The notes under the pieces: generated by a model
What the model saw: the letters and a program-made list of their open reading frames with translations, nothing else
What the model was told of the DNA's origin: nothing
Databases searched by the model: none
Program-made: the position numbers and the translations under genes
Origin: Pseudogymnoascus verrucosus
Taxonomy: Eukaryota
Direction: 5' to 3' (one strand)
DNA length: 64,000 bases
Assembly (NCBI GenBank): GCA_001662655.1
Contig: KV460232.1
In this document: in pieces, positions 15,360-64,000 of the stretch
Layout of the letters: each line of letters starts with the position of its first letter
How positions within the stretch are numbered: position 1 is the stretch's first letter

Positions 15360-18330
15360 CTAGAAAAATACAATATCCGATTCATCCCACCCAAGTTGTA
15401 GCAAGACCTTGTGAACAGATTGCTCCATCGCCTTCGGTCCACAGATCAGCACCATACATGTCTCAGTCGGAGACGCGTAGTCTTTCAGATTCTGCGCCGA
15501 GACGCGGCCCCTTTGGCCAGACCATGAACTAGAACCATCTGTAAGTGTGTGGATAATTGAACACCTCTTGCTGTCGGCCGCTGCAAAGGAATCTAGCTCA
15601 TCCTTGCAGAGGATATCTTCTTCTTTCTTGTTTCCATCGAGGAGGACGCAGGTGGTTGGATCATCGCGGTCTTGAATAACCGCACGTAAAACTTGAAAGA
15701 TCGGCGTGATGCCGCTTCCGCCACATATCATCTTGAATGACCGTACAGAGCGTTCTTTGTCGTTGATGGAAACTCTGCCCTTTCCAAGGTACTTGAATTT
15801 GCCAATAGGTCCTTTAAACTCCACAGACGACCCAATAGCAAGTTTTTCAAGAGCCATTGTCATCTTACCACCTTCCATAGTAGGAGTACTAAAATATATC
15901 TTAACAAGTACATCCACTATCCCTTTCTTGTCCGTCTGTGATATTGGTGTATATGCTCTGATAATGCTGGTTTTCTCTGGTGAATCATCTTCAGCTTTTA
16001 GCATGATATGCTGACCAGTTGGTAGGCCAAACGATTGCTCGTCATGATCCAATGCAAAAGAAAATATCCGTGTATCGCTCGATACTGCTACTTTCTTGCA
16101 AAGCTTCGCTTTCCTCCAAAATTTAGGCCTTAGGAATATCTCAGTTGGCCCTGAACTTAGCTCTTCGTCCGGTTCTTTGTTAAGAATTGCCAATGAGGCC
16201 TTATCTAGCGTGCCAACGTGGTACTCGCTCATCATCGCTTTTGCGGTCTCGCTGTCTATTTTGGAGGTCAGTATCACACCACCATGATCATTGAAAGGCA
16301 ACTCACGGATTGCAAGGAATTCCTCTGACACATCCATTGCAGCTGCCGATATTATGCTTTGGGCTCCACCCGGATGGCCGTCTAGGAATCCTGTACCATC
16401 GTACACTTCGCCATTCACAACAAACCATGGCGACTCAGGACCGCCATGTTGCTTTAGTTCCTCGATGTTAATGCTTTTGTTCAACCCCTTTGCCCTCATA
16501 TCGATCTCCTCTACAATCGTTGGCTCTCTTGGCGCTTCTCCGTTGGGTCTCTGTCCCCAAGACCCGTTTGTCAAATCCCCACCTTCTTTCTTCACACGTT
16601 CCATCCATCCTCCGGGCATTAAAGCAGGCTGTGTCGGGTGTTCGAATTTCAGGACCCCGTTGTTTTTGGTGATAGTAACTCTAAACCATGGGTTGTTCAT
16701 CATCCCCAAAACAGACCAGTACATATCTCGGGGTTGTATATTCATTGCTTCGTCCATCGCCCGGACAAGTATCGCATCGCTGGCATCAAGATCGGAGACT
16801 GGTATACTGAGAGACCACTGGCACCAGCAGAAGCAAGCCTCTCGAGAGTACATATCCACTCGACCGCCGTATAATTGTGACTCGAAATCGCGATATTTGT
16901 CTTCCGGATAATCAATATCTGCCAGTCGCCAAGCTGCGGATCTTGGGTCAGCTAGAGAAGACGCAAATGGGTGATTGTCATACATTTTCCACCGTCTAAT
17001 GATATCTCAACTCTGGTTATTCGTCGACCGCCGCCACCATATGCGTAGCCTCGCGCATTATATGTCGCTTCGGGTGTCGTAATCGGCAATTCTTCATTGT
17101 GTTGAGGGTATGCAGTGGCCGAGTTAACGCTTAGATCGTAAATAGCGTATCGGTCGTCTTGCCACCAGGACTTATCTTTCGATGCCATCTCAGGGCTAAC
17201 CATAGTTCTATAAAGTGGTTAATTATAGTTTACAACAACCAAACTTTGGATAGGGCCAGACTCACGGTAGCACTCGATTATCATAAATATGGTACCAATT
17301 ATCACTTGGAGCTTCGGTGACAATCAATTTGGTCAACCATTTGACACTCCTTCCGCCAATTTGTCCCGGGATTACCGCCCTTAAAGGACGGCCATGATCT
17401 GGGTGTAGCGGCTCGCCGTTCATTTTGTGAGCAAGCATAATGCCTCTGTTTGGGTCCATCACCCAATTCAGTTTCACTGACGTTCCGTAATATCCGTTGG
17501 GCTATAGAAGCATTAGCCGCCCGCACTCAGGATTTAGAAGAGCTATTATACCAGTTTATCGGCTCCCTCCATGCATACGTATCTAGCCCTGCGTAATGGT
17601 TTTGCCCTCCGTATGATATCGGCCATCATAGGTCCTGTGAAAAGGGCAGTCGACACTCCAGCCGCTCCCCATGAAAACCCGTTCGACTTCCGCACTTGGT
17701 TCTGCTCCTTGCGCCTATTACCAGCGCATACGAGGGTGACAGGTGCAGTTATCTGATCGAATTGTTGCAGGATTTGTCGGAAAGTTAGTGTTATCGGATG
17801 TTCAACCAACCTATGCATTCCGTCAGCTGTCAATAATCAAGGCACTCCATGGGTGTAGTACCCTTCAATACTCAGCTCCCAGGTGGGAATTTCAGAATCC
17901 AGGACTTCTGGGACCGGTCCATGATTCCTAACGTAGAAAAGTTGCGAGCTTGTCAAAAAGCCTGGAGCTTGTTCAGTACCGCGTCATTCGTAAAACAGCA
18001 TTTCAAAGTTTACCCACCATCATTGAAGAGGTCTGTCAGCGGTGCTTCTACATTGAATGGATGCACACCAGTCAACCTTATTAGACGCGGATCTCGAGGG
18101 ACGTGGCGGTCCGGAGTGTCCTTATCCAAACTGAGGATTTCTCTGAGGGGCTTTGATAATGGGGGCAATGGAATGTTCCGCAATGCAATTGTCGATATAT
18201 CTTCATGTTTGAGTGCAGATGTCTTTTCACGTATGATTGCGGGCTTTATTTCTTGTGTGAAAATGGCGGATTTCAGAGAGTGCACATTTAGGGGTGTCCC
18301 AAAAGTCAGGGATTCTGTGAGGGTCGCCAT
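15360..18330 (-). CDS. niaD: Assimilatory NAD(P)H nitrate reductase, 6 introns, reading frame intact
   Basis: RLTGVHPFNVE, FYVRNHG, Moco Cys in LVCAGNRRKEQN, GMMNNPWF, cytochrome b5 HPGG, FAD/NAD domain RAYTP, GGSGITP, CGP. All six splice junctions read in frame. Confidence 0.97.
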
Positions 18331-19303
18331 ACTGAGGAAAATTGTGATAGTGGTTCAACTACCATTATTATTATGTCCACGTATATATACGACGCATTGC
18401 AATTCTCCAAGTCATACTCCAAGTCATACTCGGTTCCGCATTCCACATGAGCCGTGCTCGGCGCAGACTTCCCGCGGACCATGGGAATTTGCTGTAAGTT
18501 AGGTCAGCAAAGTCTGCAAGCCCCCTATCGACAGGCAAGTTTGGATACAAAGCAAAAACTCACGTAAATGGCTTGTTCAGCCAGTGGCATGTCCGCGGAA
18601 TTATACATTTCTCGTCTTCAACTATTACAGTACTCCAATATCTCCTGTTGTACAAAAGATAAGGGTCAAACCGGCAAGGGTCATATCAGCATCCCGACAT
18701 TGGCCGGCTCTATAAGCTGAAGTCGTCGCAACGTGGGAATCATTGGCCTAAAACTTAAACACCAGTCAACAAACGCATGGGCCAGTTATCTTCAGCGACG
18801 TGTGGGGGTTTATTCAACTCAGATAAGGTCAACACAGAAAATGTGGAGCGTCGGGTGTCTATCTTTGGCCTCATTAGTTGTGGCCTAGGCCCCTGAAGCC
18901 CTTATCTCTTCGAATTCTGACGTCCAGATAAGCTCATGATAAGAGATTATTTGGGAGACCATACCAAAAAACCATCGCCGGAGATGCAGGAACCATATCC
19001 AAAGGAAGTTTTACGCCGAATAATCGAAGTAGCCGGCGGCTGTAGATGTGTCGCCTTCAAGCAGATAGATATCTGCTCTGTTCCGTGGAGAGTCTATCCC
19101 GTCATCGACCCGCGGAGAAACAGCAGTATGGGCAATTGCCACAATAATGCCCGACAAGTTACGATGTCCGTCTCTAGTAAGAAAAGCAGAAAATTAAACC
19201 ATATAATAGAAAGTTCTGCTTGCGAATATTGTGCAGTTGACTTTGATACGGATGATTTGACATCGCTCGCCTCGCTGCACGCTCGATATCACAGTTCGGA
19301 AAA
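18331..19303. promoter_or_regulatory. Bidirectional niaD-niiA promoter with NirA/NIT4-type and GATA (AreA/NIT2) sites
   Basis: TCCGCGGA 18592-18599, TCCGTGGA 19082-19089, CCGCGGAG 19110-19117 (reverse complement of CTCCGHGG); multiple GATAA/TTATC elements at about 18658-18942. Confidence 0.75.
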
Positions 19304-22300
19304 ATGCATTTACCGAGCGGAGCAGGGGTGGAATCGTCGACCCTTCCGGACATTCCAAACAGCATTTACAACGGAAACGGCTTCGACATTTCTGGACACG
19401 CCGTCCATAGCGACGGAAACATTGGAATATGCACTCCACGAAAGAAAATCGTGATTGTTGGGCTGGGCATGGTTGCTCTCTCATTCATGTATGTTGTCCC
19501 ACTACGACCATATTGTGCGAAATTACGGATTTTGCATTTCGAGACGCAGTAAATTTATTTGCGTTAATCCAATACTGATTCCGAGCAGTGAAAAAATTAT
19601 TAAATTAGATGCAAAAAAGCGACAGTATGATATTGTCGTTATTGGCGAAGAGTCCCACGTGGCATATAATCGAGTCGGGCTCACATCATTTTTCGAGCAT
19701 CGCGAGGTCGAACAATTATATTTGAACCCCAAAGAATGGGTTGGTGCAAAAGACTACAAGAAAATGTTTCCAATAGCTAATACTTTCTGTAGTACGGGTC
19801 ATTCGAGGATGGTTCTTTGAATTATCACCTAAACACCAGGGTTGAAGAAGTCCTCCCCGACCAAAAAACGGTCAGAACATCCACCGGCGATTCGGTCTCA
19901 TACGACATCTTAGTCCTAGCAACAGGATCTGATGCAATCCTTCCAAGTCATACTCCTGGCTATAATGCCAATGGGGTATTTGTTTACAGAACAATTTCCG
20001 ACCTTGAGAGGCTCATGGAGTTTGCCTCGAGGCATAAAGACTCAACGGGTGTTGTTATCGGAGGTGGTTTGCTCGGCCTCGAAGCTGCTCATGCAATGAT
20101 GAGTCTGAACGCATTCAAAAGTGCGAAGCTAATCGACCGCAACAAGTGGGTATTGGCCAGACAATTGGACGCTGATGCAGGATCCCTGGTGACGGACACC
20201 ATTCGCCAACTAGGTCTAGAAGTTATGCTTCGAAAGCGTGTGGCGACCATCAATACAGACAGCAGCAACAATGTCCAGGGAATCACATTCGAGGATGGTG
20301 AGTCTATAGATTGTTCATGTATATGTTTTGCAGTAAGTTCCTCAAGTGTTGTTATTGTTTCCTGCTTGTTACTAAATCGCCATTTAGATCGGTGTAACTC
20401 CCAGAGATGATCTTGGTCAAAAGGCTGGCATAAGATGTACCGAACGAGGAGGCTTCATTGTTGATTCAGGGTGATTATAATTTGCACATGTGCTATGCAA
20501 AAACACCTAGCTAACTTAAATCTAGCCTACGAACATCAATTCCTGATATCTACGCCATCGGAGAGTGCGCATCTTGGGAGAACCAAACATTCGGCATTAT
20601 AGCACCTGGAATTGAGATGGCAGACGTACTATCCTTCAACCTCACGAATCCAGAAAAGGCGCCGAAAGGCTTCGATCGACCTGACTTGAGCACAAAACTC
20701 AAGCTCTTAGGTGTAAACGTTGCCAGCTTTGGCGACTTCTTCGCCGATAGAGATGGACCAAGGTTTCTTCCTGGAAGACGGACATCAAAGCCTAACCCCG
20801 TGGAAAATGGCAGAAGAAGCTTAACTCCGCCAACGAAAGGCCCCTTAGTTAAGGCTTTAACTTACAAAGATCCATTCAGTGCCGTGTATAAGAAGTATCT
20901 TTTTACCATGGATGGAAAATACCTACTCGGAGGAATGATGATTGGAGATACCAATGATTACGTCAAATTGAACCAGATGGTCAAAAGTCAGAAAGAGCTC
21001 GAGGTCCCGCCCAGCCAGTTTATTCTCGGCACCCAGAATGGGGGAGAGGAGAACGCTGACGACTTGTATGAAAACATATACTCAACCTCACCGCCATTGC
21101 TAATTATATCACTACAGGGACGATGACACTCAGGTCTGCTCATGCCACAACGTTACCAAACGCGACGTGGTTGATAAAGTAAAGGAGGGCAGCTGCAAAA
21201 CAATCGCCGATGTCAAATCATGCACAAAGGCGGGGACTGGGTGCGGTGGCTGCATGCCTCTCATTCAATCAATCTTCAACAATACGATGAAAGAAATGGG
21301 CCAAGAAGTTTCGAATCATTGTGAGTTCTGCAACCCACTGATGTTGTATGTGGCTAATAAGATGCAGTATGTTCTCACATTCCATACTCCCGGGCCGACC
21401 TCTATAATATCGTGTCCGTCAAGCAGTTGAAAACGTTTGTGGACATAATGCAGGCAGTAGGTAAAGTTCCAGATTCGCTAGGATGTGAGCTATGCAAGCC
21501 AGCCATTGGATCCATTCTTGCGAGTATGTACAACCGTCATGTTCTGGATAAGCCAGTCCGTGACCTTCAAGACACCAACGACAAGTTTCTTGCGAATATA
21601 CAAAGGAACGGAACATTCTCCGTGGTGCCTCGCGTTGCGGGTGGAGAGATTACGGCCGATAGGTTGATAACCATTGGCCAAGTTGCGAAGAAATACAACC
21701 TTTACTGCAAAATCACTGGTGGACAGCGAATCGACATGTTTGGTGCCAAGAAGCAAGATCTCCTCGATATTTGGACCGAACTTGTCAATGCTGGGATGGA
21801 AAGCGGCCATGCCTATGCGAAATCTCTCCGAACAGTCAAGGTTCGTGGCTAGAAAATATTACCCATACCGTTGTGAAAACTCACTAACAAATTTGTAGAG
21901 TTGTGTAGGAACTACATGGTGTCGGTTTGGAGTCGGTGACAGTGTTGGAATGGCAATTCGGCTCGAGCAGCGCTACAAGAGTATTCGGTCGCCACATAAA
22001 ATCAAGGGTGGAGTTTCGGGATGCGTGAGAGAATGTGCGGAAGCACAGAATAAGGAGTAGGTTTTTGCATTGTTATTTGTCGATGGATACTGACTGTGTT
22101 CAAGTTTTGGGTTGATTGCCACAGAAAAGGGGTTCAACGTCTTCGTCGGCGGCAATGGCGGCGCAAAGCCGCGGCACTCAGAGCTACTAGCAAAGGACGT
22201 CCCACCTGACGAAGTCATTTCTCTTCTCGACCGTTATCTTATATTCTACATACGAACAGCCGATAAACTACAACGTACCGCGCGGTGGATAGAGAATCTT

Positions 22301-23107
22301 CCAGGCGGAATTGATTACCTCCGCGAGGTGGTTATCAATGACAAACTTGGTATATGCGCGGAATTAGAGCGACAGATGGAAGAGCTGGTGGGCTCCTATT
22401 TCTGTGAATGGGCCGAAACTATTAAAGATCCAGAAAGACGCAAACACTTTGAGCAATTCAGTAACACTCCGGAAACTGTGGATACCGTCGAGATCATTGA
22501 AGAGCGTGGGCAACAAAGGCCGACGTACTGGCCCCAAGGTTCAGTCACTGAGAATTTCAAGGGCCACCAATGGTCGCATGTCTCCTGGCAGCCAATTCTC
22601 AAGAGCAATCAGTTCTCGGAAGAAAAGCCACAAGTATCGTCTGCTAACGTCAAACGCGGCGACACACAGCTTGCAATCTTCAAAGTCAAGGGCAACTACT
22701 ACGCAACACAGCAAATGTGTCCACACAAGCGTGCTTTCGTACTCTCGGATGGTTTTATCGGCGACACTGACGCTGGAACATATTGGATTTCTTGCCCGTT
22801 ATGTAAACGAAATTTTGAGCTCAATGGCGAACAAGCTGGGCGATGCTCGAGCGATGAGACGACCAGTGTTGCCATCTTTGCAGCTGAGGAACGCGATGAT
22901 GGCTGGGTATATTTGAAATTGCCGCCCGTCGAAGAACTTGATGCGCTGCTTGGGACGGAGAAGTGGAAGGTTAGGAGAGAGGAAGCGGTGGATCCGTTTG
23001 AGAAAGTTGACAGAGTCTATAAGAGCTTCAGGGGAAAGAAGGTTGCTGATATTAAGGTTGAAATAATAGGGAAGCGTGCTACGGCACCTGGTGGGATTGA
23101 TTGGTAG
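19304..23107 (+). CDS. niiA: Assimilatory NAD(P)H nitrite reductase, 8 introns, reading frame intact
   Basis: VGLGMV FAD fold, [36 protein letters not shown], siroheme Cys motifs SCVGTTWC and SGCVREC, C-terminal Rieske CPHK..CPLC. All junctions read in frame. Confidence 0.97.
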
Positions 23108-23539
23108 TTAACAACTTTGTACGCATATTTGGTGTTATTGGTTCATCTCACTACATTTTATACCCTCACATATGTATTAATGTGTCTAGACTTCCACACT
23201 AGGCAATTGAGCAAAATAGGCAAGGTAATTAACATCTGCATTAATTATACATAAAACAACATTCATAACTGCATGTTATTGTGGTTATTTGCATTGGTTT
23301 ATATGATATAACGTGACTAATTAGACCAAAGAGACAGAGGTAGGAGAGGCAAGAAGCTCTCGAAATATCAACCCACAGCTATCCAATCAGTATGAATCCA
23401 GAGGGAATATCCGGAATATAACTACAGTGAGGGGCACAAAGTCTAAAGAAAAGCCTCCAATCGTTAGCTTCTGATTAGTGCTTCCCCCCACGAGCAAACG
23501 GCCGCTATCGTCTTAGCTAGGAGAGGGAGCCCCTCCCCT

Positions 23540-23720
23540 GAAAACTTTATCGACGAAAACCATCTCCGCGGAGATGCTAAAATACGATCTATATAGCCAT
23601 GCATACTAGTGCAGCCTTATCTTTGGTTATTTCATGTGCTAGGCTCTTATCCCCGTGGGTTAGATAGGATCGATGTTGGGGGTGTTGCCTCCACCCCCCT
23701 TATCTTTGGTGTCAGCAAGC
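23540..23720. promoter_or_regulatory. nrtA upstream element: perfect palindrome CATCTCCGCGGAGATG (NirA site on both strands) among GATA boxes
   Basis: Palindrome at 23561-23576; TTATC/GATAG at about 23547, 23618, 23647, 23663 and 23700. Confidence 0.75.
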
Positions 23721-24243
23721 GGGTCCTCTACCGATAGCCACTATGAAGAAACCAGTCGGGACAATTCTTCCCGCAACATCATTCCCGTTCCGATATTGAG
23801 CGAGTATTCTCGTGGTGAATCATCGCCCAATATTTTATCACTTTTCGTTCAGGCAGCGTTGGTAAGTGCTAACAGGGCTGAGACGCGCTTATCTTGTTTT
23901 CACAATCAGCGCCTCTACCTAAATTCGTATCACGCCACCATCACAATTAGTTGTAGGTTTTGGGTTTACATGCCTTGATCGTTGGGTGATAAGCTGGTTT
24001 GATCTTTGAGACACTGATGGGCTGCTATCTAAAGGCTGGCAAATCCTCAGATGCGAAATGGACATCTCCTCGGACTGTAAGTTAGAATTTCATGGCCAGT
24101 ATATATGAGCTTCATAATACGAATACAGAAGCTCTCATTTAATTTAACCATCAACATTTTCCGCAGTCTACTTTGATCTCAGTGCTGTTTAGACCGACTG
24201 TTTTGTTTTTGAACTTAATCCTGTCAATTTGAAATCATCACAG

Positions 24244-25913
24244 ATGGCTCCAAACTTTTTGAGGCTGCTCGTAGCCTCGCCAGAAATCAATCCCATCAAC
24301 CAAAAAGCAAGATCGATACCTATATTAAACCCATTCGATAAATATGGAAGAGTGTTCTTTTTCTCGTGGTTAGGATTCTTCGTTGCGTTTCTCTCGTGGT
24401 ACTCGTTCCCGCCTCTGGTAAGTCACATTTTTTGGTAGAATCCTCAAGATATATCAGATCTCTAATACATAACCTTTAGTTGGCTGTGACAATTAAAAAG
24501 GATCTTCACCTAAGCCAGACCGATATTGCCAACTCTAATATAATTGCTTTGCTAGCAACGTAAGCATCACCCCAATTTCAACAGGTTTCCGGTCTGACTT
24601 CTCTAGTCTTCTTGTTCGATTTTTCTCTGGGCCACTATGTGATCGCTACGGTCCACGATTGGTTTTTGTGGGCATATTACTGGCCGGCGCCATACCAACG
24701 GCTATGGCATTCTGGGTGCCAGCTTCGTGCCATGTCAGGTTTGGACAACTGGATACTTCGATAAAAACGTCATTGGCTCTGCAAATGCCTTGACAGCGGG
24801 CTGGGGAAATGCAGGAGGGGGTATTACATAGTAAGTCTGTCCAGTCTGTCACAAAGCACATCTATTAATACCGGTGTTACAGCTACGTGATGCCTGCGGT
24901 CTTCGATTCTCTGGTCCAGCACAGTGGACTTGCTCCCCACAAGGCATGGAGGGTGGCATACATTGTCCCGTTTATCATTATTGTCGTTGTTGCTCTAGGG
25001 ATGCTATTCACTTGTGACGATACACCCACCGGCAGATGGTCCGACCGTGCCTTGCCCATGGCAGGAGGTTCATCTGATAGCAGCATCAGAGGTGAAATAG
25101 ATACGCCGTCTTCAGTGTCCATTGCTAAGGATATCAACAACATCGATGAGAAGCACCCACAAACGATTTCAGATATTGAATCTCAGAGCGACGGCACAAC
25201 ATACCTTGACCTTGCCAAGAGCGAGTTTATTGTTCCCCCGACCACCAAGGAGATCATGCACGTTGTTATTAGCCCTCAGACATTCGCTCTCTTTGGAGTT
25301 TACGCATGCTCCTTTGGTACTGAGCTCGCCGTCAACTCTATACTCGCGTCATTCTACGAAAGAAACTTCCCTCACCTGGGACAGACGGAAGCTGGAGAAT
25401 GGGCAGCCATGTTTGGGCTTCTTAATGTTCTATTTCGGCCATTGGGTGGAATAATATCCGATCTAATCTACAAGAAGACTCAATCCGTATGGGCAAAGAA
25501 GATTTGGCTTATATTCCTCGGCGTGGCAGCAGGTGCTCACCTCATCGCGATCGGGGTATCGAATCCCAAAACTGAAGCCACCATGTTTGGCCTCTTCGTC
25601 GGCTTGGCCGTATTCATGGAGGCGGCCAATGGGGCAAATTTCTCCCTTGTGCCTCATGTGTACCCAGCAGCAAATGGTTCGTTGTTCCCAGCTCAATTAC
25701 ACCTACTTAGGTCCGTTTACTAACTTTATTTCTGCAGGTATCGTTTCTGGCACTGTTGGAGCCGCTGGAAATTTTGGAGGAATCATATTCAGCATAATTT
25801 TCCGATACAACGGGACGCATTACGATAGATCGATTTGGATAATTGGTGTCATATGCATCGTTGTCAATATGTCTGTGTTTTGGATTAGGCCAGTTCCTAC
25901 ATTGCACAAATAG
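24244..25913 (+). pseudogene. nrtA: High-affinity nitrate transporter NRT2 (NrtA/CrnA) with an internal deletion and frameshift
   Basis: [45 protein letters not shown]. After ..IPTAMA (junction 24708/24709) homologous sequence resumes at [12 protein letters not shown] in another frame; in-frame TGA at 24791-24793. Confidence 0.85.
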
Positions 25914-53210: not shown

Positions 53211-54325
53211 TTAGGCTATGAATTGATTTAGCTTCCCAGCCAATACAGTCTCAAAACGCAGTTTTCCCTGGTCTGACTCGGAAATTTCAGCCATTTGGTC
53301 GCATCCCTCCTGAATATCTTCATCCCACACGGGATATCCGATCCTGCCTTTCATACTGAGCAACACGGCCATGCGGAAATGATGCCTGAGAAGTGCATTG
53401 CATGGCTGGTACTTGTCAGGGATATCGGGACGGTGAAACATAGTTAACCCTTCATATTGAGGTTCGTTCGCGAAGGAAACCACTTTGTGATCATCCTTGG
53501 ATTTCGCGTTAGGGGGGTTGAAAATAATGCCAAAAGTTAAGAGGGTAGAGAGCACATACATCGGGATTGATCGATATAGCATATATATTAAAGAATTGGT
53601 GCGTAGTGCTATCAAGGAGAATCCCGCTTTGGATTGAATTAATCCCCGTGTCTGACATTCCAATATCATCGTCGGTAATCTGCTGTTTCCATCCCTCAGC
53701 TACCCACTATAAAAATATCCGCCAGAGTGCCTATCCTACATATAGTGATTATCAGTGGCTATACAATACCATTTCAAGTTGCGCCACTGGAAAAATATGT
53801 GCTACCTCGAGGGCTAAAAAGTCTCCGCTTTTCGCTTTTCGGCCTGTAATAACACATCGGCCATCACGTTCACGTACCCGGTTGCGAAGCTTCAGGCTCT
53901 GTTTGCAGGACGCAATGTTAGAAGTCCACTCATAATTATAAGATGGCAGAGCTTACGAGCGGGTCATTCGGGCTAGATAGAGGCCGGGATAGAGCGCGGG
54001 GCAGAGGCATCTCTGGGTTAACTGGGATGTCGACCGGCTCTCCATCTGGGCTGAGGAGGACGTAGAAGCCAGGCTTGATTATATTCGGCTTCTGTAACTT
54101 AATAGGCGGGCCATGGTGACTGAGAGGATCATTAGGGTCCCCGTCTTCAAGGCAAGGGAACAGGGCAAAATTTGTAGTAGGAAGTTCAAAGAGGATCTCC
54201 ATACGCTGGGTCATCTCGGCCCAGGTGAGCGAACCCGCCTGCCAGGCACCTCCGAGCTCATCATTTTCGCTATTGACGAAGTGGATATTGCGTTCATATC
54301 GCGATGATAACCGATAACCAGGCAT
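53211..54325 (-). CDS. Fungal HNH-endonuclease (HNH_2) domain protein, 3 introns
   Basis: Spliced RVRERDGRCVITG, LEVAHIFP, INSIQSGILL..HQFF..YAISINPD/DDHKVVSF, LLRHHFRMAVL. Confidence 0.82.
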
Positions 54326-55079
54326 TATAAGGTTGGCCTTCAAAGATAGGTTTTGTTGGGGAAAATCGAGGTTATAGTGTCTCAAAATATGAGAAAAGGG
54401 GTTCGTACGATAATGACCTCATTATTTATTATATACTAGAAACTACAATTTATAGTATGGTTGTGGTGTTGGAGCTGCTGTTTTCAGCTAGCGCTTGTTG
54501 CTGTTTTATGCATCCCCGAATACCCAAAATCTCATCACCTGCAAGATTAACGATCGGCCACCAGCGAATTATCGGGCCGACGACACTGTTCCTGAAATCC
54601 CAAAACTAAAATCTGTTGTCTAGTCTTCTACATCTAGCCTACAAGCGTCCTAATTATACCTCTGTATAGATGATACCCCCTAACATCAAGAGGCCCTTCC
54701 TAACTCCTCTGCTACCATGATAGCTACCCTTCTGGCACTTTGAACTCCTCTCCTACTATCTATGTGCCCAATATTATTTTTAGTAATGCGAATTTTAATT
54801 GTGCTAGATATGTATTGTTTTAATTCCTGCTGAAATTATCAAAGTACATAAAATAAAAGTACAATCCATATGATAAATTAACCCAGCAGGCATATATATA
54901 ACAGTATACTATAAGATTACAAACAGAGGCAGAAACTGCGACATCTGTTAGCCCTTTAGCCGCGTATAATTGCTAATTATATACCCTAAGGAGTTAGGTA
55001 AACTTTGCATAGACAATAATGGATAGATAAGGGCTATAATAAGTGCTATGTACTACTATGCATTAAAAAATCCTACTAA

Positions 55080-57211
55080 TTAAACGCCTAGACACTCCTT
55101 TAAACTACTTAGAACTAGTTGGGTCGTCGTCTCTCCCTTAAACGTCCGCAAAATGTGTTGATCGGGTCTAATAAGCACAGTACTGCCGTCTTCTAACTGC
55201 AGTGCTTCTACCCATTCCTCACCTTGTGCGCTAGGCACGAGGTGAAAGTCCTTGCCAAGAGCTAGGACGTTGATTCTTAGTGTGCTCGGCAGCTGGGCGA
55301 GAACTCCGTCAATTACTTGAGTCCAACGAAACAGTGATTTGCTGTCTACGATAAGAGTAAAAGCATCAAGAGCGCAGAGGTCGAGGGTTGAAAACTCTTT
55401 GCGTCTGACATCCTCGGGCTGCAGTTCTGTGACATATGAGGAGTCGATTGGCGGCAGTTTCGGAATCGAGGACGGGATATGGGTGACCCATGCATGCGGA
55501 AGTCTCGCACCAGGGGCAAACGCTGGCCTGTACGTTGATGCGCAGCTGGGGATGTCGGTGCTGCCGTACACATATCCTATATGCAAACCGAGGTTATCGA
55601 AGTGTTCGCGCTGGTTTTCAATACCTTCAAGGACGCTCTCTTTTGTTTTTGGGTCGGATATCCGGTGGTAGAGGTTCTCTTTAGCCCTTTGAAGGTCTGC
55701 GTCGGTGGTTCCAAGGGATTTGAGCAGATTAAAAATCTTAATGCCGTTTTTGACGCTTTGCTGCGAGTTCACAAGTGCGACTTGGCGCCGCTCGTATTGA
55801 TACGTGCTGAGGAGGCTGTCGCCGCCCCAGCCTTGGTGATAGGCGGCAATTTTCCAGGCGAGGTTGTGCACGTCTGCTAGGCCGGAGTTGAGCCCCAAAC
55901 CGCCTGTAGGTGGAAACGAGTGGGCAGCATCTCCAGCGCTTATATTTGGAATATTAGCACAGAAGTATGAGTAGACTGGGTGTGTTGAAAGACGTACAGA
56001 AAAACATTACCAACACGGTAGCTCTTGGCAACCTTGCGGCTAAGTATCCATGGTCTCCAGCTAAGGATGTCGAATAAAATTGACTTGCCGATTGCGGCAG
56101 TGACTACCTTCCGGCAATGTTCTTCGTTCCAATTCTCCACTGGGTGCTTCTTAGACTACGTAAATATTAGTAACTATCCTTAGAGAGTGCCATTGCATGC
56201 CTACATCGAAATTGCAGATCAATACTTGGTTTCCACTAAGATCATATGCGATAATGAAGCCAGAGACCTCCGGATCCATAATCCAATGAAGCATGCCCAC
56301 TTTGTCAACAATTGAGCGAAGATTCGCGTTGAAATGTATTGTCATCATTGTGTCGTCTGTTGTCTTATCAGATTCAAATATGAACTCAAAGCGTAGAGAA
56401 AAGACTTGCATGAAGATTCTCCCTCGCAGCCGACGCCTAGAAACTCTCTAACTTTGCTTTTGGCGCCATCACATGCAATGACTTGTGTCGAACAGATCGT
56501 GTATTGTTTCCGGTCTCTGCGGTCCTCCACCGTGGTTATGACTCGATCGTGAACCTACTTGTCGCGTAAGAATAGACCTGTGAGACAGAGAGAGTGAAAT
56601 CATTGTATGGGGGTAGACTGACTTGTCTACATCCAACAAAAGAATGACCCTTGCGGACCTCTACGCCATCCTTAGAAAGTCGGCTCGCGACCAGCTCTTC
56701 AAAGGCTGGTTGTGGAATGTTATGTATCATCTATAGCCTTTAATCAGCAGATATTCTCAGAGGCTTCGTCGCAGTATTACCGTAGGCGTATGGTCAAGGA
56801 CCTCAGCGTCCATTCTTTCGTATGGAAGGTCCCCAACATGATGACCCGCGAGACTAGTCACAAAGTTGACCCAGTATGCATCTTCTCTTTTAGTACCAAT
56901 ATTTCGTATCTCATTCACATCAATTCTAAATTGCCGACACGCTTCTAGAGATCTAGGGCATAATGCATGCGCCTTAGGTGCAGCCAATCGTGTGGGATAT
57001 CGTTCGATAACGAGGGACTTGACTGTAGCGCAGCGCTCGATTAGACTTGCTCAACGACTTCATTCTAGGGAGATGTACCTCCAAGCTGAGATAGACAATG
57101 TGCTTGTAAGAGGCCTGCAGGTCCGCCACCAACAATAAGCACCGGGACATCAATTGGAATAGGTTCATTGGAGGCAAAAGATCCCAAATCGTGGTCGATG
57201 TGTGGCGCCAT
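55080..57211 (-). CDS. FAD-dependent phenolic monooxygenase (FAD_binding_3; 2,4-dichlorophenol 6-monooxygenase-like)
   Basis: VGGGPAGL, IACDGAKS, AGDAAHSFPPTGGLGLNSG, PGARLPH, LIRPDQHI; six introns including a GC-AG at 56357-56409. Confidence 0.92.
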
Positions 57212-57647
57212 CTGGTCTTTGCACAAACCGCTTTTGTGTTAGTTAGACGTGTGTTCGAAACCCCAGAAGGTATCTATTAGAAAAATTGTCGATATTGTTT
57301 ATAGGGCTGCGAAGGGAAAGGATTTGAAGCCCACAGAATGGCTTTGGAGAGGGGTTTAGAAGGAGGCACATTTAGATATACAAACACTTCACAAACTGAC
57401 ATGATCCAGGTTAAAATATCCGGAGCAGCAAGGTGGGGCGCCGAGCATGTTTTCAGGATGGGAATTCCGACCCATAGCCACTATACTTGCACCCCTTTTA
57501 AAGACAATACAGGTAGAGGTGGGCGTGAGTCTCTGTATGTCCTGGGGGGGTTCGGCAAGGTGCTATTCTCCATACACGAGTCCTCCGTATGGCATCAGGA
57601 GGGATTTCTAGGACATGAGCGTCAGAGGTGGAAAGTGAGGAAGCACG

Positions 57648-57730
57648 GAGGTGGGGAGGTGGGGAGGTGGGAACGTGAAGAGGTGAAGAGGTGAAGAAGT
57701 GGGGAAGGTGGGGAAGGTGGGGAGGTGGGA
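57648..57730. repeat. GTGGGGA(A/G) array (CCCCAC on the coding strand) upstream of the monooxygenase
   Basis: Five GTGGGGA and two GTGGGA copies interleaved with GTGAAGAG units. Confidence 0.8.
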
Positions 57731-57924
57731 CACATTTGCATCCACCTCCCACCTCCATCGGCGTGACAACCTATACCTGTATTAAAATGGCCATCAGATT
57801 TCTGCTCTGTGCTTGTGATTACAATTAGGCCGGTATAAGGTAAACGCAGTGTTAGAGCAACACATGTAGTGGTAGTAGAGTTTGTGGTGGTTATGAAAGG
57901 TGGTAGAAAAAGATGACTGTGTTA

Positions 57925-58662
57925 CTAATTTCTAGAGTACTTGCTATATAATTCGGGAAGGATAGAAGCCAAAATAGCCATTTCCTCAGTAGCATGCTGG
58001 CACAACCCCTTCGGCAAAAAGTCTGGCACTCCCGCCGCCCTCTGTGCGGGATCAATAACTCCCTCTATGTCACCTAGCCAAAAATGCGAGCGCATCCGAC
58101 ATCCAATCCGCTCCTCCTTAATCAAATGGATCAAATGTCCAGTATACAGCACCTCTCCCGTCTCTGGGGTCCAATTACCCACCCTCCCACACACTGCTGT
58201 TACATAGCCTGCAGCAGCGAAATCTTCCTTCCAGCTGTCTCCAAAATACTCGGCAGGGTCGCGAAACGAGATCTTCAGCTTAGCTAAATGCCCGCCGATG
58301 TACTCTTGCACTAAATGATGGCCGCCAATATACGTGGAATTGTTGTCCCGGGGACCCTCCCAATCGGAAAAAACGTGGTCGTTAGGATGCCAGAGCTGAT
58401 ACTGCGCAGTGTCGTGGATCCAACCAAACCACCAGTCGATCATGCGGCCGGTGCAGCGCGGCATGTAGGTGCAGGCGGCGATATGGTGCATTCCTTCTGC
58501 GTTTACAGCGTAGCCAGCTTCATGCTGTAGATACGGGATATTCAGGAGGAGCTTCGCGTCTGAAAGCAGCAAGGGTTTTAAGCTTTCTTGTCCAATACTA
58601 GCTGTAGGCGTAGAATGACTAGAGGCATGTTGGCTTTGAGCATCGTTGCACTGAGTTGTCAT
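57925..58662 (-). CDS. PhlG-like 2,4-diacetylphloroglucinol/phloretin C-C hydrolase, intronless
   Basis: MIDWWFGW, YQLWHPNDH, HLVQEYIGG, MRSHFWLG, HATEEMAIL..LPELY; the His/Glu pattern expected of the PhlG zinc site. Confidence 0.85.
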   Translation of the reverse strand: MTTQCNDAQSQHASSHSTPTASIGQESLKPLLLSDAKLLLNIPYLQHEAGYAVNAEGMHHIAACTYMPRCTGRMIDWWFGWIHDTAQYQLWHPNDHVFSDWEGPRDNNSTYIGGHHLVQEYIGGHLAKLKISFRDPAEYFGDSWKEDFAAAGYVTAVCGRVGNWTPETGEVLYTGHLIHLIKEERIGCRMRSHFWLGDIEGVIDPAQRAAGVPDFLPKGLCQHATEEMAILASILPELYSKYSRN

Positions 58663-59524
58663 CGTAGTTAATGAATATAAGTCAAGCCAGGTGATAAGAC
58701 AGCGGACCGTGCTGTAGTGTGTTTTCGAGAATTTAATTTAATTTGAAACTACTGTTGCTAAGCTGCTAAAGTTGAATAGAAGGCGGTTTAAGCACTGCTT
58801 AAGTATAGTAAATACAAACGTTAATACTTAGGTCAGGTGCTCTTGGGGTTTAGTTTCGGCTTCAACGGGCGTCATATATGTGGAAAGTGGGGAAGTGGGG
58901 AAGTGGGGAACTGTTGGAGGTAATTCTAGAATATGGGAACCCCACACAGAATCGTGTGAAAATCTCTGGTTTCCGTAATCGGTTCCTATGGGCAGCAGAA
59001 CAGAGGCTTCAGCAGTAGAATACAGTAAATAGAATAATATAATCAATTGAATTATTAACTAAACTACGGGTCTACGTACGCTATTTGATGGCCTGAGGGA
59101 AACCCCAAACCCCGGAGGACTGGGCTTCTACACTCTGACCAGCTGGGGAGTGGGACAATTCCACGGGGAAAAGCGGTCGTCTGGGCGCAAAAGCCCACCA
59201 TATCCCTTAGGACAGTCCGTTCCCCCCCACACAACAGGAACGAGAAGATTGTGGTAGCAGCTCATATGGGGATTTTTTGGTTGCTTAAAGAATTTCCTAA
59301 TTTCCCAAAGAAGCTCAAAGTGCCACATTAACTGTTGATAGTAGCATTTCACGTCGCGCGTTTCATAAACTGCGTAAATATAATAATTTGCGATGCCTTT
59401 GCTTTAACCAAGACGAATCTGTATAATAGACAATAGTCGGCTACCTTTCCTAAAAACCACTGTCCATTGCACCACTAGGTTTGCTTAACACAACAGCCCG
59501 TAACTCCACTAGCACTGACGATTT

Positions 59525-61397
59525 TCAGTCTAAGCCAGCACGGCTGAGAAAGTTCTTCTTATAAGTCCAGATCCGGAATGATTTACCTTTAAAATAGAAA
59601 ATAATAGTAGTTAGATAGACAGCGACATTAATTGCAGCAACTGTCATGAACACGACTATTATACCATCAGCAACAAGCCAATCGTTAACCACCCACGTCC
59701 AAATCCATGCAATGAGCGACTTAAGGCAGGAGATTGTGACCATGAGCTCGCCAGAGAGCTTAATAATGGTCAGCCATCAATCCAATTACGGCGATAGATA
59801 TTCAGAAACATACCTCCTTGTGAGAATCAAGTGAATATGACATTGCTAAAGTAGCACCCATCTGAGCCCCAGCAGATAGTACGCCCAAGCCCACAATTGG
59901 ACCAGCCCAATGTGTCTTCGCCTGATACGTAAGTGAAGCCATAAGAGCGCCCAAGAACGTGAGCACTGCAGCAATCACACAGGCTGGAAGTCGCATCTCA
60001 GGCTCTCGAATACCGTGGTTTCTCTTCGTGGCCCAGGTTGCAATGCGATCGGCAAGCGGACCGCATAAGTAAGTCCCTGCCAGCGATCCAATGAACGGGG
60101 ACAGAAACACAAGACCTTGCGCGCCGGATTTAAAATTATACGGTCTGTCGGAATCTTGGTTCAGAATGGTAGACAAGTGATAGGAGTGGCGAGGTGGAAC
60201 TTACGGAGGAGCAAAGAGTTGTGCTACGCTAACTCCTAGGATGACGTTCCATCCAAGGGCCAGACCGTAAATCACACTTGACCACAGGACAATTGGATAG
60301 GCTGTGAGAATAAACGGACGCAGGAATGCGCGTTTCAAACTAACAAGATGATCGACTTCGGAGTAGAATGCAAGACTTTCCCAGTATGACTTTTTCGTAA
60401 TACTGTGCGAGGTGTCAGGTGAGCAGCCATCAATCACTTCACAGTGCTCTGACTGTGCCTTGTCAGATGGGATAGTTGTTGTCTCGTCATTATCAACGAT
60501 GGTAATGGCAGGTCTAGGGCCCGTGAATTTTGTTTCTGGCATGAAGAAAATTAAAGTTATCATGTTGACACCAATGCATGCTGCGATAATGAAGAAGGCC
60601 CATCGCACGCTAAGGGCCTGGATGATGTACGCAGATACGAGGGGGCCAATCTCATTGCCGCCCAAGACACCGAGACCGTAGATGGAGATTTTTTCTCCAC
60701 GTTCGTGAAGGTGGAAGATGTCGGTAACTGTACTTGGGACGATGGCTTCGATAGGGGCCTGAAAAAGGCCGAGGAAGGCTCGCCCAACGATGAAGGGTAC
60801 GTATGATTTCTCGGCTGTAATAGCAAGCCAGATACAAGCAATTCCCATTAAAAGATTGGACGTCAAGTACACCGGCCGTCGCCCATACTTAATTGCCAGC
60901 GGCCTAAGACCAATTAGAAGGATGAATAGCAATTTATGAGTAGATGAGATGTACATACATCCAAAAGAGGTTGCCAAATCCTTGGCAGATCAAAGTTGCT
61001 CCGTTGGCATAAGACACCATAGCAAGTGACACATCAAAGAAAGATGCAAGTTGAAGCATTCCTTCGAACATTAGCAGGCACTATTATGTCTAGATAATTT
61101 CAAGATGCCTACCTCCAGCCATCATTGGCCCAGTCACAGCACCATTAAATGCATAGGCGACACCATTTAGGAGAACTGTCCATTTCTTGAAAGAAGACCA
61201 ACGGAGAGGATCATTTGGGTCAATGAGAGATGGCTGTGAACCAGGAGAATATGGTCATGACCAACAGTCGCATGTTGAAGGTTGCGTAGGCGTCTCTCTG
61301 TTGTCCCAGGGGCACCCTCATCCATCATAATCTCTGTGCCAGGAGCAGCTACAAAGATCTTCTCGATGAAGCCGCTGGACTGAATTCGTTCTGCCAT
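59525..61397 (-). pseudogene. MFS transporter (HOL1/DHA1-like) with a 1-nt deletion in exon 1
   Basis: KYGRRPVY, DIFHLHERG, MPETKF, EPEMRLP. Exon 1 reads GTT CA CAG CCA where VPQP..DPNDPLRW is expected (61237-61238). Confidence 0.78.
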
Positions 61398-61752
61398 TTT
61401 GTGGCATATACTGGGCGACTGGATATATGCTTCGCAAAGACAGAGGTGTATTTAGGTTTCTTAATTAAAGTCGTAAAAGCCCTAAATACATCTGAGTAAC
61501 AGGTTGCAGCGCCATCGACTCTTAATCTGGATCTGGAAGTTATATGAAGGACGTTAAGATGTTAGGTAATATCTAGGGTGTGCCAGTCACCCCACGATGG
61601 GTCACCCGTAAAGCCAATATTAGAACTGCTATGTGGGGTTTCCCCACATCCCCACACACGTTACTTTCAAGGCGTCGCATGATGAACCTCACCATTACGA
61701 GCTGCCGTACCCTACCGCCCCACGATTCTGTCAATTGTTCCGAGACCTGTGT

Positions 61753-64000
61753 CTAGACCCGTGAATAGGAACTTTCGTTGACGATCGAGATCCACTGGTG
61801 TAGAATAGCATCCATCTCATGAGATACACCCCAGCGTAAGGATATCGATCCTAGCATAATTTGGAGTGAATTTAGTTCGTACGTCAAATTTCGCATTAAA
61901 GACTTTCCCGAGCTCGTAACGTATCTGCCTTGCATGAATTCATTTGTGTCGTTATTAGGTGTTGGAATGTTGTCGAAATTGGTCTCATTTTGAGATTCCA
62001 CTCCCCATGCGTCTTCCCACCGGATAGTTGCTGGTACAGCAACGGAAGCTTTGTCTGCCATACACCGTGCACTGTATATAGACGCCACTGCAAATATAGC
62101 AGCAGGTAGGTGAATAGTGTGCGACCGACCAAGCGGCAACCTATCCACGAGATCTTGGATTGCCATTGAGTGCAAAAGAGCTCGGCGTCCCTCGTCACTT
62201 TGAGCCCAGACGACAAGATCAGATTCGTGGCCGGTGTAATCTGCTCCGCTGTAAAGCTGCTGCGGGATATTGTAGGTGGCACAAATCCATCTACAGAGCT
62301 GTGTTGTTGGAGTGGCTAGATTAAGGCAGATGCTGTGCCACCTGATAAGCAATTCCATGCTTTCAGCCGCTGCAGGATTAAGGAAGCGTAGGCTCAGGTT
62401 GTAGAGAGATATGAGAGCCTGGGCGATACTAATCTTCGACGGTGTTCCAACAGCAGGGCCCTTTAGTTGCTGCACATCTGAAATCAGAGATTGGAATCCC
62501 TCTAGTACCACTCGGACGGAGAAATTGGACATCGGTTGATTAAGGCACAGAAGATTGGGGGAGAACATGTCCACAAATATCATTTGGAATGATCGCTGCG
62601 GGGTTGCCTGCTTCTGAACTTCCACAATCCATTCATCCGCAGTCGTTGCAGCGAAAGCCTGATCGGATGCGGGCGTCAGAAGAGGGTTTGTGACATGGCG
62701 TACGCATGTTGCGTGCCCAGAGAACTGTGAAATCTGCCCGTCGAGAATGTAGTGGCCAAGAATTGCCCTTTTATGAACCTCAAGGGCAGCCCAGATCTTC
62801 CATTGCTCGTTTTTTTCATCTTCTGGTGTATCGAAGGTTGGCAAATGGAAAGAACCTTCATTAATTTGATACATCCCACATTGTCTTGCCCAATAGAATC
62901 CCAGTCCGTGAAAGACTTGACACGTCATTCGTAAACTTTCGTTCTTTGATAATAGCGCATATGTCTGTCCAAGCAGTGCTGTTAAGATAAGCTGTACCCC
63001 ATTACATTGGTCTCTCGGACCCCTGGTAGCCATAAGAGCTTGCCATGAAGTTGCAACGGACATGTGAGCCAGCCTCCACAAAGCCTCGCCCTTAGTTACA
63101 GCGTCCTCTGCTGCTACAAACAGCGACCCAAGCGAAATAATGTTCAACAGGAGAGGGTGACTCGTCTCTCGTGCTAGAAAAGTAGGCTTGTGCAGCACAG
63201 GAAATGACGGCATGAATTTGTCGAAGAAGACATAGATACATGTGTCCAAAAACGCAGATGTAATGCCCTTAGAAGCAATCTCAGCAGTTAAACTAGAAGA
63301 CAGATTTCCAATCAGTCTGCTCATCTGTTGCATAGCCTGCTGCCCAGGACTGTCGAAAGCGTCGATTTGTTCGTTTGCGGGAGGCAGGACTTCTGAACTG
63401 TCCATCCTTAGAGCAGCGGATGGCTGAAACTGCATTACAGGCAATGTGATAGGCCAGTTGCTGTTGAAGTCTGACATCAAAATTTCAAGCAACTCGCCAG
63501 ATTCGGCCCACGATTGCATCGTTTCTGGTCCTGCCGGTATGGAGCTATGACTTGTGTCTGTATGGAGCTCCGGAAGACATGAGGGTTTGCGGCTAGTTAC
63601 TTCAGCCATGGGCTCCTCAAGCCGCGTGTTCTCTTCAGCTACTGAGGCTGGCGGGGTTGCCGAGGATTCTGCCAAAACACGTGCCTTTCCATTCTCGTGT
63701 AGTTTAGCATGTCTTCGCAATACGTCCTGCCGGCCAAAGCTCTTATTGCACCGTAGGCAAGAGAATGGTTTCCGGTTAAGGTCTTTTAAAATCAGCTTAG
63801 TGTAACAAAATCAGAAGGATTGTACAAACGGCTCCTTTCATGTCTCTAAAAGTATGTCAGCAAAACAACTAGACAACCAAGGCTTAATAACTTACTGCAA
63901 GGTGCTCGGCTTTAGTAAAGTTTCTACAGCAGGTAGTGCACCGAAACCTTCCGCTGAGATCATTTTCTGTATGATTGTCGTCATTGCCTGGAGAAGTAAT
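61753..64000 (-). CDS. Two-finger C2H2 transcription factor with fungal-specific TF domain (5' end beyond the window)
   Basis: Spliced FRCTTCCRNFTKAEHLA/RHERSH/LNRKPFSCLRCNKSFGRQDVLRRHAKLH; FFDKFMPSFPVLHKPTF. Confidence 0.9.

Follow-up and report, generated by a model that had tools for sequence, protein, structure and literature searches.

A conserved fungal gene cluster around a PhlG/Phy-family hydrolase in Pseudogymnoascus verrucosus, a candidate module for the catabolism of acylphloroglucinol-type phenols

Results

The last 9 kb of a 64,000-nucleotide stretch of Pseudogymnoascus verrucosus DNA (contig KV460232.1 of assembly GCA_001662655.1; the whole stretch is called the window here) carries four genes in the same orientation on the minus strand, encoding a C2H2 regulator, a major facilitator superfamily (MFS) transporter, a hydrolase of the PhlG/Phy family and a flavin adenine dinucleotide (FAD)-dependent monooxygenase. 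They were recognized by a Pfam search of the open reading frames (ORFs) of the window, and the multi-exon models of the monooxygenase and MFS genes were assembled by hand. To judge from their sequences and those of their relatives, these genes on balance probably form a conserved, co-regulated fungal module for the catabolism or detoxification of C-acylated phloroglucinol-type phenols. A preliminary description of this DNA had reported the four co-oriented genes and interpreted them as a pathway for phenolics of the 2,4-diacetylphloroglucinol (DAPG) type. Both the Pfam matches and the gene models confirm the four genes at this place, all on the minus strand, and the interpretation is supported in part. 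The corrections that have to be made are that the regulator gene is cut by the end of the window, that the MFS gene is apparently frameshifted, and that a public gene model of the region is chimeric.

The hydrolase gene (P0001; 57925..58662, minus strand) is a single ORF of 245 amino acids and the only intronless gene of the four. A search against the DAPG_hydrolase family (PF18089), as proposed in the preliminary description, gave a clear match of 152.5 bits (cut-off 22.7) that covered profile positions 4-222 of 223. The best sequence match in the PDB was the phloretin hydrolase of Mycobacterium abscessus (5xe5; 1.6e-18, 70 bits), while PhlG (3hwp) was matched at 3.5e-14 and 56 bits. Phy and PhlG share a conserved His and Glu, to which residues H96 and E120 align, and the HxxxE motif of Phy is matched by H223 and E227; the alignment to PhlG ends ahead of its C-terminal HxxxE. 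We take H96, E120, H223 and E227 to be the counterparts of the metal ligands (His/Glu/His/Glu) of the PhlG/Phy family, so that metal binding is a prediction, and H179 aligns with the residue that we take to be His214 of PhlG. All five residues were invariant among 30 fungal sequences; across 43 more distant sequences each of these positions was either invariant or conserved to at least 90%.

An AlphaFold2 model of the hydrolase had a predicted local distance difference test score (pLDDT) of 89.5, with the first ~30 residues at 53-59. Comparison of the model with solved structures using Foldseek returned 5xey, 5xe5 and 3hwp at the top (template modelling (TM) score 0.70, E 2.7e-13 to 3.8e-13), followed by other Bet v1-like proteins. 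As modelled, the hydrolase shares the Bet v1-like fold of the solved PhlG and Phy structures. Similarity to Phy of M. abscessus (5XE5/5XEY) extends over the Pfam family, the fold (TM 0.70) and the aligned His, Glu and HxxxE, at only about 27-28% identity and with a shorter N-terminus in the fungal protein. Similarity to PhlG of Pseudomonas fluorescens (3HWP) extends over the family, the fold and the conserved His and Glu of the first half, at 23% identity and with the lower score. The profile match, the conserved residues and the superposition of the model on both phloretin hydrolase and PhlG bear out the PhlG-like identity that had been proposed for this enzyme.

Members of the hydrolase family with 60-77% identity were found in filamentous ascomycetes (162 matches at E<=1e-5, and 672 representatives at E<=1e-3 in a deep search), in genera that include Coniosporium, Cadophora, Mollisia, Phialocephala, Penicillium, Aspergillus, Venturia, Exophiala and Ilyonectria, among others. 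In related loci the hydrolase was matched by tblastn without interruption across the aligned part (residues ~41-245), so the intronless state is a trait of the family. The C-termini of homologues were also inspected. A terminal [KRH][LMI] pair (for example EKL, AKL or SKL) was present in 42 of 121 sequences and a strict type 1 peroxisomal targeting signal (PTS1) in 7 of 121, which suggests that some members of the family may be peroxisomal; the hydrolase of the window ends in SRN.

The partner gene downstream of the hydrolase (55080..57211, minus strand) has seven exons and six introns (57078-57023, 56780-56731, 56622-56555, 56409-56357, 56204-56156 and 55997-55939) and encodes a protein of 598 amino acids that resembles FAD-dependent aromatic hydroxylases of the PheA/TfdB/MhpA type. 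The model aligned without gaps, over 598 of 598 residues and with 90.6% identity, to the public 598-residue protein P0270 of Pseudogymnoascus sp. VKM F-4518. The fourth intron (56357-56409) has a GC-AG splice pair with a GCAAGT donor, and it is the model containing this intron that aligns gap-free to the orthologue. Two exons matched FAD_binding_3 (PF01494) with 73.2 and 32.5 bits, and the GxGxxG, DG and GD motifs typical of group A flavoprotein hydroxylases can be read as 'VGGGPAG', 'CDGAKS' and 'AGDAAH'. The C-terminal aromatic-ring hydroxylase domain PF21274 was matched weakly (18.1 bits, cut-off 27.5). Relatives in the PDB were RebC, HbpA and a chain named 2,4-dichlorophenol 6-monooxygenase, whose lengths of 549-601 amino acids fit the 598 of the model; no characterised close relative was found. 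The domain match, the motifs and the PDB relatives agree with the earlier assignment of this gene as a putative phenol-type monooxygenase. Public orthologues carry the automatic name '3-propionate hydroxylase'.

The last exon of the monooxygenase is 100% identical to part of a public 680-residue P. verrucosus protein (P0269, VE01_06026). This protein contains both PF18089 and PF01494, and joins residues 1-241 of the hydrolase to parts of the monooxygenase, corresponding to 55080-58662 of the window. Since the hydrolase ORF ends in a stop codon of its own, 713 bp away from the monooxygenase gene, we read VE01_06026 as a chimera that annotation made out of two separate genes.

The remaining two genes lie upstream of the hydrolase. 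The MFS_1 transporter gene (59525..61397, minus strand) matched PF07690 with 88.6 bits and has four introns (61112-61062, 60958-60904, 60204-60145 and 59813-59759). The regulator gene (61753..64000, minus strand) is truncated at its 5' end, since its start codon lies beyond base 64000. In the window we could read exons at 64000..63896 and 63782..61753 on either side of a micro-exon at 63845..63830, all on the minus strand. As in other transcription factors that combine C2H2 fingers with a Fungal_trans domain, two fingers precede PF04082 (54.5 bits). Both fingers and the splice sites were deduced from the DNA, the first finger after joining of the exons, and agree with those of L003, one of the fungal loci described below; in the Pfam search the second finger scored 17.4 bits, which is below the cut-off. 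The gene has at least two introns and the 16-nt micro-exon splits the first finger, a layout that is identical in L003. The micro-exon (63830-63845) encodes 'RHERS' of the first finger, and its counterpart in L003 lies at about 5097-5112.

We then asked how far the four genes occur together in other fungi. A metagenome scan yielded 79 loci, of which 13 were of fungal type (L001-L013) and encoded hydrolases 58-72% identical to that of the window. Partner genes were searched by tblastn with the four proteins of the window, and the loci were assigned to eight lineages (A-H) from the DNA identities of their hydrolase genes. At least one partner gene stands beside the hydrolase in 10 of the 13 loci, representing six of the eight lineages, and the gene order is rearranged; the monooxygenase adjoins the hydrolase in five of the eight. 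Lineage B (L003, which equals L013, and L004) has all four genes in an order unlike that of the window, with a divergent monooxygenase gene upstream of the regulator. Lineage A (L001, L002 and L005) has the regulator beside the hydrolase, lineage C (L006) the MFS and monooxygenase genes, and lineage D (L007 and L008) the same two genes together with a Zn2Cys6 regulator instead of the C2H2 protein. Lineage E (L009) has a monooxygenase gene, again divergent, and lineage F (L010) a monooxygenase and a C2H2 regulator that is 32% identical. No partner was found in lineages G (L011, a contig of 1.4 kb) and H (L012, a contig of 3.4 kb).

By gene, orthologues of the regulator with 43-53% identity adjoin the hydrolase in L001, L003, L004 and L005, those of the MFS transporter occur in L003, L004, L006 and L008, and those of the monooxygenase in L003, L004 and L006-L010. 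The flanks outside the cluster genes vary between lineages. In L008 a Zn2Cys6/Fungal_trans regulator gene (4265-6296) lies between the MFS and monooxygenase genes, and in L010 the hydrolase-monooxygenase pair is accompanied (4308-7261) by another FAD monooxygenase, which has an FAD_binding-like domain, and by a gene of the nitronate monooxygenase family. Chance adjacency of the four genes was considered and rated low, as the same families neighbour the hydrolase in 10 of the 13 fungal-type loci in varying orders and orientations.

In named genomes, adjacency was taken from consecutive locus tags. The hydrolase and monooxygenase have consecutive tags in Penicillium macrosclerotiorum (006405/006404) and P. 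lividum (000453/000454), and lie three tags apart in Phialocephala subalpina (14075/14078). Hydrolase and regulator are consecutive in P. manginii (002055/002056) and P. atrosanguineum (000947/000948). Regulator and monooxygenase are consecutive in Cadophora sp. M221, P. angulare, P. brasilianum and Aspergillus rambellii, and two tags apart in Coleophoma cylindrospora, P. hispanicum and A. bombycis. Conservation of the cluster, which had been set beforehand as a check, was therefore seen in the 10 metagenome loci, and the locus tags suggest the same for Penicillium and Phialocephala.

The intergenic regions of the cluster share a short promoter motif. The window contains 53 copies of CCCCAC where 30 would be expected, and none of 100 shuffles reached 53. 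Of these sites, 16 fall into the 1,930 bp that make up the three cluster intergenic regions, some of them in arrays with a spacing of 8-9 bp. Six sites on the minus strand lie between the hydrolase stop and the monooxygenase start (57433..57722, with arrays spaced by 8-9 bp at 57651-57722). Five are upstream of the hydrolase (58887..59230), three of them in tandem at 58887-58908 with 8-bp spacing, and the motif count gave five more upstream of the MFS gene (61590..61723). When 6-mers were ranked by enrichment, without bias, over the promoters of the cluster in four lineages, and only words seen there at least eight times were admitted, CCCCAC came first (34 observed against 3.3 expected). It was present in at least two copies in each of the four lineages, and overlapping words ranked next. 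Pairs or triplets of CCCCAC, mostly as TTCCCCAC, precede cluster genes in three lineages (A, B and E); lineages A and B carry a C2H2 orthologue, and the contig of lineage E is too short to show a regulator. The motif was absent from the cluster regions of L008, which has the Zn2Cys6 regulator, and of L010, in which the C2H2 protein is 32% identical, and there was no copy anywhere in L006 and L007. A promoter motif common to these genes fits their co-regulation, and the C2H2 protein of the cluster may be the factor that binds TTCCCCAC.

Bacterial relatives of the hydrolase were retrieved by a profile search of genome contigs with an alignment of 12 hydrolase sequences. The closest were about 45% identical and came mostly from Alphaproteobacteria, with some from other groups. 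The carriers include Bradyrhizobium, Rhizobium, Agrobacterium, Mesorhizobium, Devosia and Rhodobacterales, and plant-associated genera are among them. In three loci (L080, L092 and L094) the homologue lies within a run of genes of the cyclase family, the short-chain dehydrogenase/reductase (SDR) family and a 3-hydroxyacyl-CoA-dehydrogenase-like (3HCDH-like) type, with ATP-binding cassette (ABC) transporter genes nearby, and the run in L094 also contains a BKACE gene. The families of these four neighbours are those of the phloroglucinol pathway formed by PGR, DPGC, TfD and TAL. According to PMC10470551, that pathway was worked out in Clostridium scatologenes, the cluster also occurs in Bradyrhizobium and Mesorhizobium, and some clusters hold DAPG_hydrolase genes; a phloretin hydrolase of Eubacterium ramulus is cited there as well. 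At least two of the four pathway genes were found within 6 kb of the homologue in 39 of 61 bacterial genome loci; the same was true of 17 of the 66 metagenome loci of bacterial type, many of them short. Conversely, tblastn with the four L094 proteins found no match to PGR/DPGC/TfD/TAL-type genes in the window or in L001-L013. Across the 127 bacterial loci, a distant FAD monooxygenase (25-29% identity) was present in five, and the MFS transporter or regulator of the fungal cluster in none. More distant homologues of the hydrolase, with 24-29% identity, were seen in Chloroflexota and in two archaeal metagenome-assembled genomes (L130-L137 and L139), and the Ktedonobacterales loci with a distant homologue also carry cyclase, SDR and 3HCDH-like genes.

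The ancestry of the hydrolase was addressed with a quick maximum-likelihood tree of 96 sequences, for which support was limited to the Shimodaira-Hasegawa-like approximate likelihood ratio test (SH-aLRT), many rows were unlabelled, and PhlG and Phy were left out. Twenty-two fungal rows and two unlabelled ones formed a group (SH-aLRT 89) that falls neither within the alphaproteobacterial clade nor within any other named bacterial clade. The deep branches lack resolution, and no trust can be placed in the two long-branched Chloroflexota rows as a sister group. The absence of introns had earlier been regarded as compatible with bacterial ancestry. That the hydrolase alone lacks introns holds true; the suggested ancestry finds no clear support in the tree, in which the fungal rows group together and are not nested in any named bacterial clade, and the lack of introns in a gene of 245 codons is weak evidence for it. 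A bacterial origin of the hydrolase is possible. Any transfer would have been old, given how many genera of filamentous ascomycetes carry the family at 60-77% identity.

Outside the four genes, the remaining 55 kb of the window carry housekeeping genes and a cluster for nitrate assimilation, and neither a polyketide synthase (PKS) nor a nonribosomal peptide synthetase (NRPS) was present among the Pfam matches of 31 window ORFs. The nitrate-assimilation cluster (15360-25723) has a minus-strand gene resembling nitrate reductase, with molybdenum cofactor, cytochrome b5 and FAD domains, as well as exons resembling nitrite reductase and a plus-strand MFS gene. A gene for a carotenoid oxygenase of the RPE65 family (4039-5643, minus strand, 351.9 bits) bears no relation to the cluster. 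ORFs at 53211-54418, just downstream of the monooxygenase, were rejected as cluster members because they had no Pfam match and no counterpart in related loci. The same holds for a short minus-strand ORF at 53752-53952, in which one stretch resembles an HNH nuclease.

Discussion

The gene content suggests the following scheme. The C2H2/Fungal_trans regulator would act on the TTCCCCAC repeats that precede the hydrolase, monooxygenase and transporter genes, which may be inducible as a unit. The predicted metal-dependent hydrolase of the PhlG/Phy type would cut an aryl-carbonyl C-C bond, giving a phloroglucinol-type phenol and a carboxylic acid. The flavin monooxygenase could then hydroxylate one of the phenolic products, either phloroglucinol itself or a hydroxyphenyl acid (phloretic acid, for example), and ring cleavage would be left to enzymes encoded elsewhere. 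The MFS protein may move substrate or product in either direction, and may be inactive in this assembly. Import, as had been assigned to it earlier, was a guess, and the gene looks frameshifted here. A catabolic rather than a biosynthetic reading fits, because no PKS or NRPS is found nearby.

The scheme resembles bacterial phloroglucinol-degradation clusters, in which a hydrolase predicted to free phloroglucinol lies beside the enzymes that consume it. It differs from them in two ways. The hydroxylase that accompanies the fungal enzyme depends on oxygen, implying that the route is aerobic, and the four genes of the reductive pathway are absent from the window and the 13 fungal loci. The simplest reading of these parallels is that this branch of the hydrolase family frees phloroglucinol from an acylated precursor, the ring of which bacteria would then reduce, while fungi would have paired the hydrolase with an oxygen-dependent hydroxylase. 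Unlike Phy, the fungal enzyme, whose activity is predicted, has genes for a C2H2 regulator, an MFS transporter and a flavin monooxygenase as partners in place of flavonoid or phloroglucinol-reduction genes. Unlike PhlG, which is located in the phl antibiotic locus (PMC7062750), it is found in a cluster of catabolic appearance.

Several observations weigh against a dedicated acylphloroglucinol module. The N-terminal region of the solved bacterial enzymes is not matched: the fungal proteins are shorter by roughly 35-60 residues, and alignments begin at residue 61-68 of the Phy/PhlG chains against about residue 27-35 of the fungal hydrolase. Lineage A has the regulator and the hydrolase only, followed downstream by 6 kb of unrelated sequence, and L011 and L012, both on short contigs, are without any partner. 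No conserved ring-cleavage enzyme was found in the cluster among the ORFs of L003, L008, L010, L002 and L012. The motif CCCCAC (GTGGGG) also fits what we take to be the consensus of the general carbon-catabolite repressor CreA, and so need not belong to the cluster's own regulator. Just after 61234, in the stretch 61225-61245, the MFS gene has an apparent single-base deletion (a -1 frameshift), as judged against the intact 'LLVPQPSLTDPNDPL' stretch of the L003 and L008 homologues; because the 495 codons past the break stay open, this is either an assembly error or a very recent lesion. A search of the literature, outside most subscription journals, returned no fungal member of the hydrolase family characterised for activity, expression or induction. 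In that search DAPG came up together with Pseudogymnoascus in a reference list only, and a mention of 'PhlG' in a review of white-rot fungi proved to be a species code and not the enzyme.

In A. bombycis the regulator-monooxygenase pair (ABOM_003498/003500) exists with the hydrolase elsewhere (ABOM_005648), which suggests that the hydrolase may have been added to an older unit. Regulator, monooxygenase and transporter would then form a stand-alone unit for phenol catabolism, to which the hydrolase is a later and looser neighbour whose product need not feed the monooxygenase. We consider this rather unlikely. It agrees with the consecutive or nearly consecutive tags of regulator and monooxygenase in seven named genomes, and with the number of proteins matched by the last exon of the monooxygenase, 873 at E<=1e-20 compared with 162 for the hydrolase at E<=1e-5, two thresholds that differ. 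Such a loose association does not account well for the TTCCCCAC motif that the hydrolase has in common with other cluster genes, or for its position beside the monooxygenase in five of eight independent lineages despite rearrangement. Still less can be said for the genes as tailoring functions of a secondary-metabolite cluster with a core synthase past the end of the window. Clusters of that kind often include FAD monooxygenases and MFS pumps together with cluster regulators, the window ends inside the regulator gene, and the far flank beyond base 64000 lies outside the data. No PKS, NRPS or terpene synthase was found, however, in the 55 kb upstream or in about 10 kb on each side in L003, L008 and L010, a core synthase was likewise absent from the Pfam matches of 24 ORFs in these three loci and of 11 ORFs in L002 and L012, and the flanks differ between lineages. 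A biosynthetic role thus appears highly improbable.

The substrate is a separate matter within the catabolic reading. The preliminary description had left the choice between DAPG and a plant dihydrochalcone. DAPG detoxification proper would make the hydrolase a fungal counterpart of PhlG that deacetylates the Pseudomonas antifungal to less toxic products, with the transporter acting as an efflux pump. Its membership of the PhlG family and the shared fold are consistent with this, as is the deacetylation of DAPG by tolerant strains of Fusarium oxysporum (Schouten et al., as quoted in PMC5373426). Against it stand the lower sequence score to PhlG (56 bits) than to phloretin hydrolase (70 bits), the association of the nearest bacterial relatives with phloroglucinol catabolism and not with phl biosynthetic genes, and the hydroxylase partner, which suits catabolism better than simple deacetylation, so that we regard DAPG detoxification as unlikely. 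Phloretin-like plant dihydrochalcones or other acylphloroglucinols are somewhat better supported as candidate substrates and are ranked ahead of DAPG. The preference is mild where it draws on the two scores and on the bacterial relatives in phloroglucinol-degradation operons, and very weak where it draws on the automatic name '3-propionate hydroxylase' of the monooxygenase orthologues. Of the two substrates first suggested, the phloretin type is therefore slightly favoured and DAPG is the less supported.

According to PMC8361449, Valsa mali converts phloridzin to phloretin and on to phloroglucinol and other products, by genes that are described there as largely unknown. We tentatively propose, as a possibility that we hold to be somewhat doubtful, that the cluster could be the missing genetic basis of acylphloroglucinol cleavage in fungi, covering both the splitting of phloretin by fungi of apple and the deacetylation of DAPG by Fusarium. 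The cluster would then operate as a small regulon whose dedicated C2H2 regulator recognises repeats of TTCCCCAC, and would be an aerobic, monooxygenase-based counterpart of the bacterial reductive pathway. The literature searched names no genes for the cleavage of phloretin or DAPG in fungi, and a conserved candidate cluster, with a candidate regulator and a candidate binding motif, is now available. If the proposal is true, it would show how fungi came to join a C-C hydrolase of bacterial type to an oxygen-dependent route in place of reductive phloroglucinol degradation.

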